A stretch of DNA of 64,000 nt, taken from assembly GCA_965203095.1 (NCBI GenBank), contig OZ241877.1, forward strand, positions 448,001 to 512,000, written 5' to 3'. Position 1 is the first letter of the stretch. The number at the start of each line of letters is the position of its first letter. The position numbers are program-made. Source of the stretch: Bdellovibrionales bacterium (GTDB taxonomy: Bacteria; Bdellovibrionota; Bdellovibrionia; Bdellovibrionales; UBA1609). Shown here piece after piece: positions 24,001 through 33,000 of the stretch.

Positions 24001-27000
24001 ATCCATTGGGCTTTTTTTTTGTCCAACAGACCTTTTTCTAAATGAGCTTTAGCTGAGCATTCTTTGATAAGGGCTAAGGCTTTAATCAGCTCTATGGGCA
24101 TGAGGTCTTGGCCGATTTTAAAATTTTTTAACGACCTTTGGCTTTGCGCTCCCCAGAGTTTGTCTGCGGGGATACTCACTTCGCCCAAGCTGTCTTTTTC
24201 TGTCCGGGTCTTCAACAGTGCCTCCTTATTTTATTAAGATGGGTTCATGAGTATTTTCCTCATATTTTTGATAATAGCAAGGTTCATGAATCATAATTTG
24301 TGAGAGATTGTTGTTCCTGCCTTGAGTGGGAATCCAGAAAAGCCTGTTCTCGTAAAAACAGGGGTTTTTCTCGCAAAAAATCTACATTTAATGGATCGCA
24401 CAAGCAAAAAGTCCAGCTTGTTCGGGACGGCAATACCTTGGACCCTCACCGCTGGCTTTTGCTTGTGCGATAAAGAACAGAGATTTTTTATAGGCAATTT
24501 TTTAGTTTTTTTGCCTGATCTGGCTTTTTTTCTAAAGTTTTTTAAACAAAAAACCGATAGGTCTTTATAATGAAGAAAAATAGACCCTTGGAAAGTTTGC
24601 CAAAAAGCTCCCTAAGCTTTTTAGCTCCCGTGAAAACGGGAATCCAGAAATCTTTTCCGCAAAAACTTATTGAAAAGTCTTATTCCTTAGCTTTTTGCCC
24701 AAAGGCCATTTCATTTCGGGACGGTAAATTTACCCCCCCCCCCCCCCCCCGAAAAACGCTGTAAATTCAATAGTTTAAAGCATTTTAAACACAAAAAAAC
24801 TTTTCTTTTAAATAATAAAGGCTTTTCTATTACCGGTGTTATGGTGGCCTCCACTATTGGGGTTATAGCCATGACGGGCATGGCTAAACATGCGGCTTTG
24901 ATAGCCCAACAGCAAAAACAACTTAATCAGGAAAGGGAGCTGAATGCTTTTTGGGAAAGGTTTGGGACTGAAACTGATTGTAAGGAAACAATAAAAGGCT
25001 GGCTCAATCAGAATACAGCTCCTAACTATCCAGCCCCTACAAGTGCTCAAAAAGCTAAGTTAGCAGAGGGGACTGAAGGCAATGAGATAGAAATCAAAAT
25101 CATAAAGAAGTCAGCCAGCTCTAATCTTTTAGATGTTCATGACACTACAAACATTTTTAGGCGATATGGTTTTACTCCCCGCTTTTTTGTTTTGAGATGT
25201 AATCCAGCAGACAATGGGGGGAGTTGTGATTGTCGGACTTCTGCTCATACCTATTCAGGCGGGGCTTGTAAAAAAACTTGGATGCTTATCCCTGGTGTTC
25301 AAAGGGGAATGACTTTTATTAGAGGAAGGGTTTTGAATTTAGATATTGAGTGGTCGTCTGCTCCTGATAGCACTTATACTAATTTTGATTGCACTAAAAT
25401 AGGAACAACAGGGGGCAAAAACCGCTGTTATAAAGCGGAGGCAACTGGGAGCAGAAGAACCCTTGCTGGATGTGGTAGCACACAATCACTTGGTGGCACA
25501 GGCACAACCGCTTTTGGTAATGATGCGGGCCTGTCGGCTACTATCACGGGGTCTGAAAATAATTTTTTTGGTAAAGGAGTTGGTGGAAGTGCCACAGTGG
25601 CTGGGCACTACAATACTTTTTTAGGATTTGCTGGATATAGGGCCAAAGTGGACGGGACATATAATAATTTTTATGGGAACCAGGCTGGCAGAGAGTCCAC
25701 AGTGGCAGGCGGGCACAATCTTTTTATTGGGTATTATGCAGGGAATAAGGCTACAGTTAGCGGGGATGGCAATCATTTTGTTGGCAGACAAGCTGGCTAT
25801 CAAGCCACTTTGGCCGGGAGTGCCAGTCATTTTTTTGGTAATCAAGCGGGATATAAAACAACGGTGACTTCAGGTTCAAGCAACACTTTTGTTGGCACTA
25901 ATGCTGGCAGAGAAGCCACAATCTCAGCCGGTGGTAATCATTTTTTTGGGGACAATGCTGGGAAAAAAGCCACAGTGAGCGGAGGACAAAATCATTTTAT
26001 TGGTGATCATGCCGGCCAATCCGCTACAGTGGCCGGGGCGAGAAATACCTTCTTAGGGGACAGTGCGGGATGGAATGCGGATATAAGAAGCGGGGCCGAT
26101 GGCAATGTTTTTATTGGGCAGAGTGCGGGAAAAAAAGATCATGGCACAGGCACAGGCGGTTATATATCAGGGGATTTGAATGTCTTTTTAGGGCATGCCG
26201 CCGGCCGGACTGCTAAAGTTTCAGGTGGGTATAATACCTTTTTGGGAGCTGGGGCTGGGGACAAAGCGACTGTCTCAACAAATGCCAACGGCAATACTTT
26301 TTTAGGGCAATATGCGGGGAGCAATCAGTCCTTTTCAAGGAGTGGTGGAACTTATATCCGGGGCAATCAGATCAATCTCAGATCTCCCCGCTCTCAAACA
26401 CATGACGGGATTTTTCTCAATGCAGATAAAAAGATAGAAATCAAAGCTCCCGATGTAAAAATAAAAGCTCAAGGATGGTTATGTCCTGCTGGACAAGTCC
26501 TTAGAGGATTTGACACTTCTGGGAATAAAAATTGTGTGGCCACTGGAGGCACAGGCTGGAAACAAACTTGTTCAGGGGGGCAATACCTAAGAGGTTTTAA
26601 CAGCTCAGGGAATAAGGTTTGTTTTGGAGGGTGTCCAGTCCATCAGAGTTGGAATGGGAGTCAATGTGCGAATCGTTGCCCCACGGGGCAAGCTTGGTCT
26701 GCCACTTGTGGAAATGTATGTATCCCGGTATGTGGGACAGGTCGAATCCGGAACAGGGAATGTGGTAGTTGTAGGGATCTCCGTTGTGGAGATCCAGGAT
26801 ATAACGGACCCTGTGGCCCATCATCCAAAGTTTATAAAAAGAATATTCGTCCCTTTAATGATATGGAAAAGGCTTTGAAGGACATTTTAGAGACTCCCCT
26901 ATTCACTTATTATTTTAAGGATAAAAACAATTTTCCTAAAAAGAAAAGAATGGGAGTGATAGCGGAGGACTTGCCAAAAAACTTACAGCTTAAAGGAAAG

Positions 27001-30000: not shown

Positions 30001-33000
30001 TGAAAGGGGCGGACTTATCAAAGACAGACTTGAGATGGGCAGACTTGAGAGGGGCGAACTTGAAAGGGGCGGACTTATCAAAGACAGACTTGAGATGGGC
30101 AGACTTAAGAAAGGCAGAACTGGAGGGAGCAAGCTTGTCTAGGGCAGACTTACAAACGGCGGACTTGAGATGGGCAGGCTTGGAGGGGGCAACCCTGTAT
30201 AGGGCAGATTTGACAGAGGCTTTTATGAGCTTAACCTATAAATATCGTGACATGATTATGCACAGCGGAGCATTGAACACAGACAAGATTAACTGGAGGG
30301 ATTAAGCCTCTAAACCCTCTATTTTTCTCTCTAATCTTTATCTATATCAAAAGCCTCAGCTATAAAACAAGCTCTGCCCTTTGTGTGAAAAATTTACAAT
30401 AGACTTTACTTTCCCGGACAATTCTGCTATACCCCTACACAATGAACCTACTATTAAGCCTTATTCTTTTAATGAGCTTGCCGGCTTTTGCTAACTGCCG
30501 GAATGTTTTTGAGCCTGATTTAGAACCCGATAAAAAACAGGTAGAGCTGATTAAAAAAATCAGACAAGGGAAAAAAAACTTGGCAAGGGCGAACTTGAGA
30601 GAGGCGAAATTGGCGGGAGCGGACTTGATATTGGCAAAATTGACAGGGGCAGACTTGAGAAAGGCAGACTTGTCAGAGGCGAAATTGTCAGGGGCGAAAT
30701 TGGAGAGGGCGATCTTGCAAGGGGCGAACTTAGAAAGGGCGAACTTGACAAGGGCAGACTTGGGAAGGGCAGACTTGTATAGGGCAGACTTGTATAGGGC
30801 AGACTTGAGAGGGGCATTCTTGATAGGGGCAGACTTGAGAAGAGCAATCCTGACAGAGGCAAACTTGAGAGGAGCAGACTTGAGAAGAGCAATCCTGACA
30901 GAGGCAAACTTGAGAGGAGCAGACTTGATAGGGGCAGACTTGAGAAGAGCAATCCTGACAGAGGCAAACTTGATAGGAGCAGACTTGAGAAGAGCAATCC
31001 TGACAGAGGCAAACTTGATAGGAGCAGACTTGAGAAGAGCAATCCTGACAGAGGCAAACTTGAGAGGAGCAGACTTGAGAGGAGCTATCATAGACGAACA
31101 TTATCGTGACATGATTATGAACAGCGGAGCATTGAACATAGGCTTGATTAACTGGGTGGATAAGAAAAAGAAAGACTTGGAAGGGGCAGACATGAGAATA
31201 CCAATTAGGCCCTAAACCCCTCTATATTTTCTCTCTAATCTCTATCAATATCCAAAGCCCTCAGCTATCAAATAACCCTCTATTCTGGCTGATATTGAGC
31301 AGTTTCAAAAAAAACTTATGAAAATCTAAAGCTTGCATCACTCTATTCTGGCTGATATTGAGCAGTTTCAAAAAAAGCTTGACTTTCCCTGTTAATGTCC
31401 ATATAGTGGATGAGGGTATAAACTAAACCTTAAGGATTATAAATATGTCTGAAACATTGAACCCGGCCACACCGGCACAAATAGAAAGGGATGATAGTAA
31501 GGCTAAAGGGATAAGTAAGGGATTGAGGCTTAAAATTATGATTGGGGCTTGTCATGCGTTGTTATCTTTCCCTGTTGGAATCTATTTTAAAAGAAGGGGC
31601 TGATCGCCCGGACCGCACAGGCACTGGCACACGAAGCCTCTTTGGCCAGCAGATGAAGTTTGATTTGAGTAAAGGCTTCCCCTTAGTGACAACCAAAAAA
31701 GTTCATTTAAAATCGGTAATTTATGAGCTTTTGTGGTTTTTAAAAGGGGATACCAATGTCAAATACCTACAAAAAAATAAAGTGAGAATTTGGAATGAGT
31801 GGGCCGACAAAAACGGCAGTTTAGGCCGAATTTACGGGGCACAATGGAGGAGCTGGAAGTCTCATAGCGGGAAAACTGTAGATCAAATATCCCAACTGGT
31901 GAAAAATATCAAATCAGATCCCTTTTCCCGAAGGCATTTGGTGGTGGCTTACAACCCCGGTGAACTGGAGGAGATGGCCCTTCCCCCCTGCCATGCTTTC
32001 TTTCAATTTTATGTGGCGGAAGGCCGTTTGAGTTGCCATTTATATCAGAGAAGTGCTGACGCTTTTTTAGGAGTTCCCTTCAACATTGCCAGCTACTCTT
32101 TATTGACTTTAATGTTGGCTCAAGTCTCTCAACTTCAACCGGGTTTTTTTATTTTGAGTTTTGGCGATGTTCATATCTATCACAATCATTTTGAGCCGGT
32201 AAAAACCCAGCTTTTGAGAAAGCCTTACCCCTTACCAGTGATGAAAATCCGTCCAGAGGAGAACCTCTTTAATTACAAATATGATAATTTTGAATTGAGC
32301 AACTATCAACATCACCCGGCCATTAAAGCCACTGTCGCTGTTTGAGTTTTTCATAGATCTGGGGGAGTAAAAATGTCTGCTATAGAGTTTGAAAAAGAAA
32401 GCCTGTTAAAAATTAAAAATCGTTTGGACTCTATCAGCCCTTCCTTTTGTTTGGCTAAGTGGCTGTTTTTAAAAATCCATCTGATGACGGGGAAAACTCA
32501 AAGTTGTTATCATGTCCCTGAGCATTTTGCTGATAAAAACGAAATCCAAAAAAATCCCTCGGCCCTGCACAACACCACTCAAAAAAAGTGGGAGAGAAGG
32601 CAGATGATGGCGGGTAAAAAACCCCCTGGCTGTTCCTACTGCTGGCGGATTGAGGAATCCCACCGGAGCTATAGCGACCGGCATTATCAATCCCTTAACC
32701 CATGGGCACTCCCTCGTTTTGATGAGATAGTGAAAAAGGGCAGTGAATATGATGTGATCCCCTCTTATGTAGAACTTAATTTGAGCAATGCTTGCAACTT
32801 CAAATGCAGTTATTGCTATCCAGAATATTCTTCTTCCATTCACAAGGAATTAAAAAAACATGGCCCTTTTCCCACAAGCCCTCCCCATAATGACCTCATA
32901 CATTTAAAACAGATGGGATCCCTACCCCCTTCCTTTTCTGACAAAAAAGAAAGCCCTTATGCCAAAGCTTTTTGGAAATGGTGGCCAGAGCTTTACCCTC

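Follow-up and report, generated by a model that had tools for sequence, protein, structure and literature searches.

Candidate prepilin-type S74 fibres with poly-C leaders and stand-alone pentapeptide-repeat cassettes in a Bdellovibrionales genome

The window is a stretch of 64,000 nucleotides of contig OZ241877.1 from a Bdellovibrionales bacterium (assembly GCA_965203095.1, here G000). It contains a fibre gene, called as an ORF from 24841 to 27288, that scores over the cut-off for Peptidase_S74 (PF13884, 30.1 bits against 22). Six pentapeptide-repeat protein (PRP) ORFs follow it between 27314 and 31215, with PF00805 scores of 107–209 bits against a cut-off of 20.2. The features discussed below are these.

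24533–24560, plus strand: FliA/sigma28-type promoter of the fibre gene, TAAAG-N16-CCGATA, from motif count and literature match.
24570–24822, plus strand: long prepilin leader with the proposed true start, an ATG lying 9 nt past the −10 box; out of frame in the assembly, stopping at 24764.
24627–24647, plus strand: palindromic REP-like element inside the leader (55 genome copies, at most 1 mismatch).
24733–24750, plus strand: poly-C tract of 18 C, a probable slipped-strand ON/OFF switch; a tract is found in all five fibres.
24811–24882, plus strand: prepilin-like cleavage motif (G/F at 24822/24823) and hydrophobic helix, with Gly instead of Glu at +5.
24823–27288, plus strand: predicted mature fibre, with a pilin-like N-domain, a stalk of GxxNxFxG repeats, a variable Cys-rich tip, the S74 chaperone (about 26821–26979) and a coiled coil.
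27257–27283, plus strand: FliA-type promoter lying within the last codons of the fibre, predicted to drive the first PRP; of nine fibre ends or remnants, eight have the strict motif.
27304–27311, plus strand: Shine-Dalgarno sequence of the first PRP.
27314–27868, plus strand: PRP1, 184 aa, basic, with a Sec-type leader.
27944–28005, plus strand: cassette head, an imperfect palindrome (27944–27961) and a sigma70-type promoter, TTTACT-N17-TATAA (27978–28005), 8–9 nt before the ATG.
28015–28548, plus strand: PRP2, 177 aa.
28624–28685, 29228–29289, 29778–29838 and 30381–30432, plus strand: repeats of the cassette head.
28694–29152, plus strand: PRP3, 152 aa.
29298–29765, plus strand: PRP4, 155 aa, with two near-identical copies at other loci.
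29847–30305, plus strand: PRP5, 152 aa, 97% identical to PRP3.
30442–31215, plus strand: PRP6, 257 aa.

The genome has six S74 matches, with five full fibres, one partial duplicate, and 3′ remnants. The initial annotation described five fibres with a PRP gene 25–29 nt behind each, 42 PRP genes, and fibre remnants ahead of other clusters. All of this holds: the gaps from fibre stop to PRP ATG are 25, 25, 29, 25 and 28 nt, the 45 PRP ORFs give 42 genes once three split genes are merged, and the remnants were found along with the partial duplicate. PRP genes at fibre or fibre-remnant loci make up 30 of the 42; the other 12 lie elsewhere. The fibre start at 24841 does not hold, as that position falls within the prepilin-like helix. 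That earlier reading includes neither the prepilin leader nor the poly-C tract, and no FliA promoters.

Among the fibre paralogues the N-domains are 77–95% identical and the tips 14–40%. In the S74 SDxxxK-type motif, Ser and Lys are invariant in eight genus fibres, and the second position is Ser in G000. As far as the available text of PMC10769870 describes the MAT fibres of B. bacteriovorus, the likeness is close: both are multi-copy, with a conserved base, a mosaic stalk, a variable tip and a C-terminal S74 Ser...Lys, and both come from bacteria of the same order. The difference, again by description, is N-terminal. MATs have a Sec signal peptide and then a beta-rich domain of ~130 aa, whereas the fibres here have a prepilin-like leader, with a poly-C tract in it, and a 48-residue helix. 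The words 'pilin' and 'pentapeptide' are absent from the main text and searched supplements of that paper, and 'phase vari' from those supplements; its Discussion leaves open the surface attachment of MAT fibres and a tie to type IV pili. By analogy with the S74 family, the fibres would form trimers, be displayed at the surface and bind prey glycans.

The fibre carries the parts of a class III signal, i.e., a basic leader, a G/F site and a hydrophobic helix, as type IV minor pilins and pseudopilins do (N_methyl, TIGR02532). It differs from these in its fusion to an 800-aa S74 trimeric fibre, in Gly5, in a sub-cut-off score (E=0.005, 18.3 bits against 21.2), and in leaders of 78–122 aa, unusually long for a prepilin, which counts against the assignment. 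Three homologues, P0136, P0265 and P0271, exceed the cut-offs of both N_methyl and S74. The Gly of the G/F site is invariant in eight genus fibres; the +5 residue is Gly in all five G000 fibres and Glu in more distant homologues. Tip pilins without Glu5 exist, e.g., GspK/PilX. An M...G/F leader occurs in 27 of 152 proteins among the matches listed, and the prepilin–S74 architecture in 13 of 48 S74 ORFs from fetched family loci, many of them incomplete. The genome encodes the prepilin peptidase PilD, four secretins, and seven T2SS/T4P ATPase matches. An AF2 model (pLDDT 76) has a single helix over residues 3–50 with beta strands after it, a topology that fits a pilin. Foldseek gave no match at E<=0.001, and the best pilin structural match, 7o5y (Z 3.4, rmsd 4.2, 107 aligned), is tied with unrelated entries. 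A literature search combining prepilin, S74, tail fiber and Bdellovibrionota returned no relevant paper. On this sequence evidence the pilin leader is very probably real. A type IV prepilin N-terminus would in turn mean that the fibre is probably processed by prepilin peptidase and displayed either on a pilus or within the inner membrane.

The fibre promoter matches TTAAG-N16-CCGATA, the FliA motif of B. bacteriovorus given in the available text of PMC3627812. The −35/−10 motif of that regulon is alike in this genome, the difference being that one promoter here lies inside the 3′ end of a coding region. The motif occurs 48 times in the genome, against 6–9 in shuffles, and a FliA gene is present, its profile score over the cut-off. 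Since no flagellin was found in G000 (90% complete), FliA appears to be kept without its classical target. An ATG follows 4–13 nt downstream in 21 of the 48 cases (background 13%), and 14 of these ATGs open ORFs of at least 200 aa. In a supplement row of PMC3627812, Bd0705, a surface-anchor gene, has a FliA site and a TSS at the gene start. From the upstream ATG to the tract, the register is equal in four of five fibres. Openness of the leader frame alone proves little, because 18 of the 55 copies in the genome have the REP-derived frame open for at least 55 codons.

Given the upstream ATG as start, a long 5′ coding homopolymer sets the frame. In the two-contig assembly, where homopolymer errors may occur and whose tracts are not spanned by the public-run contigs displayed, the lengths at the five fibres are 14, 17, 18, 18 and 22 C. 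The frame is intact at 14 and 17 C, i.e., in two fibres, and the window fibre, with 18 C, is out of frame. C/G runs of at least 11 number only nine on the chromosome, five of them at the fibres (paralogues, hence not independent), and the chromosomal run-length distribution has a gap at 12–13. Among relatives, two of the four fibres of G059 carry a leader C tract, of which one is in frame and the other out, and the leaders of P0131 and P0135 carry Pro or Gly runs. In G101, of nine upstream ATGs assigned, eight are out of frame whether or not a C tract is present, so the frameshift model cannot simply be carried over to that genus. One tract in G084 follows a TTGACA box, in a promoter-spacer-like place.

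From the sequence, it is likely that translation begins at the upstream ATG and that the gene is switched by the tract. It is somewhat unlikely that the tract is instead non-coding or mis-sequenced, the fibres being always on or transcriptionally controlled, a possibility compatible with the other rival explanations below. Homopolymers are error-prone and the leader is REP-rich, and the G101 and G084 patterns also speak for it. Against it, no ATG, GTG or TTG lies in frame between the tract and G/F, which leaves no other start upstream of that site; an ATG sits at a leaderless position behind the FliA motif in four fibres and one relic; the 14–22 spread exceeds a one-base error; and the run-length gap and the concentration of long runs at the paralogous fibres fit poorly with it. 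If the tract does switch, slippage in the leader-coding region would set each paralogue in or out of frame, and cells would then, we propose, show different tip subsets. Phase variation of pilin-anchored, MAT-like adhesins is probable on these grounds. According to the available text of PMC5231331, Neisseria PilC1 is a pilus-associated adhesin turned on and off when a G/C homopolymer within its coding sequence changes by strand slippage. The fibres share with it a candidate coding homopolymer switch of a pilus-linked adhesin; they differ in that the protein is unrelated, that five paralogues with different tips each have a tract, and that switching is here a prediction. A literature search for Bdellovibrio and homopolymeric phase variation found no relevant paper.

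The PRPs consist of tandem A(D/N)Lxx repeats (791 pentads profiled) and are, by charge calculation, mostly neutral to basic; window PRP1–5 have no Cys and PRP6 has one. The repeat arrays reported within the genes are present in six of six window PRPs, with periods of 15–105 nt. A hydrophobic leader (simple hydropathy rule) is confirmed in 39 of 45 ORFs, and a lipobox is found in three. The C-terminal motif is less general than had been claimed, being present in 32 of 45. The first PRP is a lipoprotein, by its lipobox, at three of the five fibres. Every PRP has its own promoter motif, sigma70-type in the later ones; the one fibre end or remnant without the strict FliA motif has CCGATAA. The fibre 3′ remnants are accounted for by the FliA motif in the last fibre codons, which suggests a single fusion with later duplication. 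The fibre–PRP junction is one homologous sequence in nine of nine cases, and the linkage therefore counts as one event. Gene ends are conserved as reported (last 75 nt 80% identical, 24 genes). The 38% for the upstream 80 nt is misleading, being low because an ungapped comparison spans two promoter classes; once aligned, the window spacers are near-identical. A head of sigma70-type promoter plus signal peptide also precedes unrelated, non-PRP cargo. Taken from sequence, the PRP genes are self-promoted, stand-alone cassettes of predicted promoter, signal peptide, repeat cargo and conserved end.

Identical copies of PRP1 stand behind another fibre and behind that fibre's partial duplicate. PRP2 and PRP3 differ by 25 aa of repeat units, with 0 substitutions in aligned codons, and 339-nt contigs in two public runs match PRP4 without differences. 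The proposal of an exported beta-helix family, recently expanded by duplication of a fibre-end plus PRP unit, is supported. The 42-gene secreted burst exceeds that of any of the 80 family genomes searched, and the PRP profile gives 0–12 matches in nine genus genomes against 67 in G000 (matches, not gene counts). 'Species-specific' is nevertheless too narrow, as P0003, from another assembly, is identical to PRP1 at 130 of 184 residues (71%), with length and motifs kept, including the C-terminal one. The DNA mimics Qnr, MfpA and McbG have the same fold and were rejected as a model, since Qnr/MfpA mimics are cytoplasmic and acidic, the PRPs are exported and mostly neutral to basic, and the Qnr/MfpA models score far under cut-off. 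In the available text of PMC12864828, the YjbI-type secreted PRP of Caulobacter is at the outer-membrane surface; it is described as a single conserved protein that has two pairs of Cys and a charged tail that inserts into the membrane. The PRPs resemble it in PF00805 repeats, a Sec signal (by heuristic), a predicted extracytoplasmic place and a charged surface. They differ in number, with 42 paralogues arranged in cassette arrays, and in sequence: most lack Cys, the YjbI Cys pairs and tail are missing, and the C-terminal motif is lineage-specific.

The first PRP is 99% identical behind fibre tips that are 14% identical, from which the PRPs are, with high probability, not tip-specific partners of the fibres. 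Of the earlier suggestion that PRPs work with the fibres, probable co-expression stands for the first PRP, from the shared FliA-type motif; matched adaptors or shields are unsupported.

From the anatomy, motifs, frames and lack of co-variation we infer processing, pilus display, switching, expression phase, and PRP location and function, in a reading to which we assign a probability of about 0.5: two linked layers, switchable prepilin–S74 fibres and stand-alone PRP cassettes, in a reduced Bdellovibrionales genome. A FliA (attack-phase) promoter would give the fibres mRNAs that are nearly leaderless. One FliA-driven PRP cassette would have fused to a fibre 3′ end; duplication, conversion and IS1634-flanked repeats would have multiplied the fused unit, behind which cassettes of the sigma70 type would have accumulated. 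Of the roles considered, the likeliest is that the PRPs form a variable, neutral-to-basic, YjbI-like envelope or surface repertoire that tunes the surface during prey or host contact, with no one-to-one fibre pairing. This coat function, drawn by analogy, falls a little short of an even chance.

Other roles for the PRPs have been weighed. It is unlikely that they act on prey cells or a sponge host, whether as exported effectors or as repeat proteins directed at eukaryotes, in analogy to PipB/PipB2 or symbiont repeat proteins. Signal peptides, a FliA (attack-phase) motif before 15 ORFs, fast change in repeat number, metagenome contigs of marine and sponge origin from a near-identical organism, and reduced sponge Bdellovibrionota (PMC9944714) would suit that role. 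However, PipB/PipB2 models match through generic repeats only, far under cut-off; an enzyme domain is lacking, a protein exported by Sec gets no farther than the periplasm unless another step follows, and close pairs bear no sign of diversifying selection. Largely neutral expansion, in which unequal crossing-over, conversion and IS activity multiplied a few functional secreted PRPs within a small, host-associated population, is improbable. It would account for the identical and near-identical copies, for pN about equal to pS in recent pairs (as expected of relaxed selection), for the three split genes and several short copies, for duplications flanking IS1634 copies (3,350 nt at 99.8%), and for the deletion of some fibre loci, but most copies retain frame, signal peptide and promoter, the most divergent close pair has pN 0.050 against pS 0.112, and the first PRP is conserved in P0003.

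Binding of PRPs to a conserved part of the fibre, tip excluded, as adaptors, chaperones or shields, is distinctly improbable. The fixed place of the first PRP behind the fibre, its strong Shine-Dalgarno sequence, the FliA motif shared with the fibres, and the lipoproteins, which could anchor something, all agree with it, and in Burkholderia T6SS-5 PRP genes lie behind a trimeric spike. Yet no PRP lies behind the homologous fibre in eight genus loci (0/8), nor behind 48 S74 ORFs of relatives (0/48, many fetched loci incomplete), the first PRP is expressible whatever the fibre frame, and the missing co-variation with the tip, the single ancestral junction and the 12 genes elsewhere weigh against it too. 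Immunity-like self-protection in the predator periplasm, as with Bd3460 ankyrin or HetL, is very improbable: small secreted repeat-protein arrays behind a variable gene resemble immunity arrays, and repeat-fold self-protection has precedents (PMC13689555, in its available part; HetL), but the fibres have no toxin or hydrolase domain and cognate co-variation is absent.

Extended beyond the two layers, a more tentative picture is that flagellin-less, reduced, sponge-associated Bdellovibrionales show phage-tailspike-like S74 trimers as pilins on their type IV pili and choose prey or host surfaces by stochastic poly-C switching among the paralogues, as contingency loci in a predator. A combinatorial set of beta-helix cassettes, driven by FliA and sigma70, would coat the cell or arm the place of contact, and the cassette head module would bring in further cargo. 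For annotation, the fibres show that gene callers mis-start such genes. The 42-gene burst would be a natural library in which to look for the role of secreted PRPs. The prepilin–S74 fusion would offer a concrete, testable answer on fibre anchoring for a sister lineage of the MATs and, if true, prey-recognition fibres switched by a homopolymer would amount to a contingency-locus strategy of the kind usually linked to pathogens.

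An S74-domain (PF13884) ORF of 815 aa, here called the fibre, lies in the window and is followed by six ORFs for small secreted pentapeptide-repeat proteins (PRPs; PF00805). Genome-wide, the bacterium (G000; 1.80 Mb in two contigs, 38% GC, 90% complete; chromosome contig C1) carries five complete fibres together with one partial duplicate and some short remnants of 3′ ends. The features discussed are as follows, in window coordinates.

24627-24647: a copy of a palindromic repeat
24811-24882: Pfam N_methyl match
24823: proposed start of the mature fibre
24841-27288: fibre gene as called
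27257-27283: FliA-type motif inside the last fibre codons
27314-31215: PRP1 to PRP6

We propose that the fibre gene begins upstream of the annotated 24841. The frame just 5′ of this position encodes a basic leader that runs to a G|F site, with a hydrophobic helix after it; the N_methyl match there (E = 0.005) is under cut-off. The Gly of G|F does not vary across eight fibres of the genus, and in most of these an ordinary ATG lies 10–45 codons upstream of it. An M...G|F-type leader is found in 27 of 152 listed proteins, and three proteins (P0136, P0265 and P0271) score over both the N_methyl and S74 cut-offs. G000 has pilus machinery, i.e., a prepilin peptidase, four secretin matches and seven ATPase matches. 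The AF2 model of the fibre N-domain has one helix over residues 3–50 with strands after it; in a fold search with this domain, the best pilin had a Z of 3.4, level with unrelated rows, and an Atlas search gave no usable match. A genome-collection scan with the fibre N-terminus alone found nothing, and one with a four-fibre alignment found 4 loci. Taken together, the leader, the invariant Gly, the homologues over both cut-offs, the machinery and the modeled helix argue that the G000 fibres are pilin-led S74 fibres. Tip pilins without Glu5 include GspK and PilX.

The G000 fibres would function in the manner of the mosaic adhesive trimer (MAT) fibres of Bdellovibrio bacteriovorus (PMC10769870), with a conserved base (77–95% identical) and divergent tips (14–40%), but differ in an N-terminus that falls outside the one by which MATs are recognized.

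Related genomes carry further such fibres. G101 has at least 11 pilin-S74 fibres in tandem (G101:C7:819000-884000; loci L138–L140) and 14 S74 matches genome-wide; the array has long repeated upstream regions, with C9–11 tracts at four fibres. In G031 (C2:621000-640900) and G058 (C5:1666000-1680000), pilin-led S74 fibres occur as overlapping pairs or triplets, as if they formed hetero-complexes of minor pilins. The pilin-S74 homologue of G045 (L044) has a collagen-like Gly-Pro-Pro repeat as its tip.

A poly-C tract lies in the leader of all five G000 fibres (14, 17, 18, 18 and 22 C), about 70 nt before G|F, and only nine C/G runs of at least 11 occur on the chromosome. The stretch from the tract to G|F has no in-frame ATG, GTG or TTG. 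In four fibres, despite leaders of 139–271 nt, an upstream ATG opens a frame into the tract in the same register; this frame is continuous with the fibre when the tract has 14 or 17 C and not when it has 18 (the window copy) or 22. The fifth fibre, which has lost the upstream start, looks silent. In the related genome G059, two of four fibres have a leader C tract, one in frame and one out, and among 11 loci viewed elsewhere in the genus, several tracts lie in 5′ coding regions. We suggest, with a probability of roughly 0.7, that the poly-C tract switches the fibre frame. PilC1 of Neisseria, as described in PMC5231331, offers a parallel.

It is possible that the apparent switch reflects an open leader or a sequencing artefact. 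The leader is long and consists in part of a palindromic repeat, whose frame is open for at least 55 codons in 18 of 55 copies; homopolymer errors may occur at the tracts; none of the metagenome contigs listed spans the tract; and in G101, of nine upstream ATGs assigned, eight are out of frame, tract present or not. Against this, the upstream ATG has independent support from a motif 8–9 nt before it that agrees with TTAAG-N16-CCGATA, given as the B. bacteriovorus FliA consensus in PMC3627812.

This FliA motif occurs 48 times in G000 versus 6–9 times in shuffles, and an ATG follows 4–13 nt 3′ in 21 of the 48 versus a 13% background; 14 of these ATGs begin ORFs of at least 200 aa. A FliA gene is over cut-off at C1:1163775-1164443; flagellin was not found in the 90% complete G000. 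The 48 motifs probably outline an attack-phase regulon. According to PMC3627812, Bd0705 of B. bacteriovorus has a FliA site and a transcription start at the gene start. Within 400 nt upstream, the motif is found neither at the other four long tracts nor at the fifth fibre, and the four G059 fibres have none upstream.

Two of the other long tracts are described here. At C1:1606315 (L065), 21 C lie between the ATG and signal peptide of a 300-aa secreted protein without known function, out of frame as assembled and a second candidate phase-variable gene. At C1:1414917 (L064), an 18-C tract, followed by the sequence that also follows the fibre tracts, lies in a short ORF whose end falls immediately upstream of, and in frame with, a TadG-like pseudopilin gene. 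In the genus (G045, G076, G083 and G084), long runs of C are common, and several of them lie at the start of genes for secreted proteins or behind a −35-like box. The palindromic repeat has 55 copies genome-wide; 27 sites fit ATTCCC-N8-GGGAAT, a pattern like that of Neisseria dRS3.

The PRP expansion noted in the initial annotation is real and recent. A repeat HMM finds 45 PRP ORFs in G000, or 42 genes once three split genes are merged, 30 at fibre or fibre-remnant loci and 12 elsewhere; PF00805 matches (not genes) number 107, from 78 of 181 candidates scored, versus 0–18 across 80 family genomes. PRP4 and PRP6 are each matched by short-read contigs that show no differences, so these genes, tandem copy number aside, are not assembly inventions. 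The family is not strictly species-specific, as had been claimed: P0003, from another assembly, is identical to PRP1 at 130 of 184 positions and has the C-terminal motif, and fibre ends 84–86% identical are found outside G000. A metagenome scan with a PRP alignment gave one weak locus.

The PRPs do not appear to be partners of the fibre tips. First PRPs 99% identical stand behind tips 14% identical, and 100% identical ones behind tips 40% identical; no PRP comes after the fibre at eight genus loci, or after any of 48 S74 ORFs at loci of the family, among which one of the eight recurs. The fibre–PRP link appears to be more regulatory and historical than physical. At all nine fibre ends, 25–29 nt and a strong SD separate the fibre stop from the PRP start. 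The FliA motif in the last fibre codons, a strict match in 8 of the 9, shows homology to the promoter in front of stand-alone PRP genes; because these codons hold the PRP promoter motif, 3′ fibre remnants persist in front of PRP clusters. This suggests one fibre–PRP fusion event, copied afterwards. At two loci the fibre is deleted and its upstream region kept.

PRPs appear to be cassettes with their own predicted promoters. TTTACT-N17-TATAA lies 7–10 nt before the ATG of 21 PRP ORFs, often preceded by one of 23 copies of an imperfect palindrome; a loose pattern put 17 ORFs in a sigma28 class, 15 once two TATAAT variants are removed. Twenty of the 31 matches to the cassette head precede PRPs and 10 precede secreted cargo unrelated to them; one match is spurious. 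The non-PRP cargo has no Pfam or NCBIfam family over cut-off. Such genes at C1:8991, 108348, 186852, 1249087, 1468955, 1470844 and 1678538 encode secreted proteins with Gly-rich hydrophobic segments, and share promoter and signal peptide with PRPs.

PRP repeat number varies in steps of 15–105 nt, and IS1634 copies are flanked by duplications. In the window array, no strong terminator-like fold occurs in the five internal spacers and Rfam has no match. Integron-like or site-specific shuffling was rejected: no integrase adjoins this array, and although other PRP clusters have Rpn, IS and a resolvase close by, no recombination site was shown. Four Rpn-like nuclease genes, 94–100% identical (C1:65390, 1437141, 1470550 and 1680076), each lie inverted beside a cassette.

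PRPs are known from Burkholderia T6SS-5. In G000, 39 of 45 PRP ORFs have a hydrophobic leader, with three lipoboxes. Their charge is mostly neutral to basic, and 29.5% of pentads have K/R at the outward i+1 position, versus 9.9% in other fetched PRPs. Export and charge argue against DNA mimicry, which was rejected, and the charge pattern would fit binding to anionic surfaces. The closest tested precedent, from PMC12864828, is YjbI, a Sec-exported PRP in the LPS layer; the Cys pairs described there are absent from G000 PRPs. A single-sequence AF2 model of PRP4 reached a pLDDT of only 42, and an Atlas search returned generic PRP clusters only. Among 16 close pairs, pN approximates pS in recent ones and is 0.050 versus 0.112 in the most divergent; the pooled C-terminal motif gives pN 0.09 > pS 0.04 on few, non-independent sites. 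Neither strong constraint nor diversifying selection gives a clear signal.

The unique flanking genes have close matches among contigs from public metagenome runs, marine and sponge, with few differences (for example 3 per 306 nt and 3 per 406 nt in the sponge run), and the organism likely lives in association with a sponge. Bdellovibrionota with reduced genomes in sponges are reported in PMC9944714. A literature search gave no relevant title on PRPs of sponge symbionts or Bdellovibrio. fumC, the radical-SAM gene and the oxidoreductase gene show no synteny within 1.5 kb of thyA in nine genus genomes, which gives no date for the insertion site.

A literature search covering few subscription papers gave no prior description of a prepilin-S74 fusion with a switch. 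The fusion is absent from the text and the two searched supplements of PMC10769870; a third, scanned supplement may bear on the matter. The most valuable part of the locus is the fibre, which would combine a prepilin-S74 fusion, FliA-type control and a probable frameshift switch.
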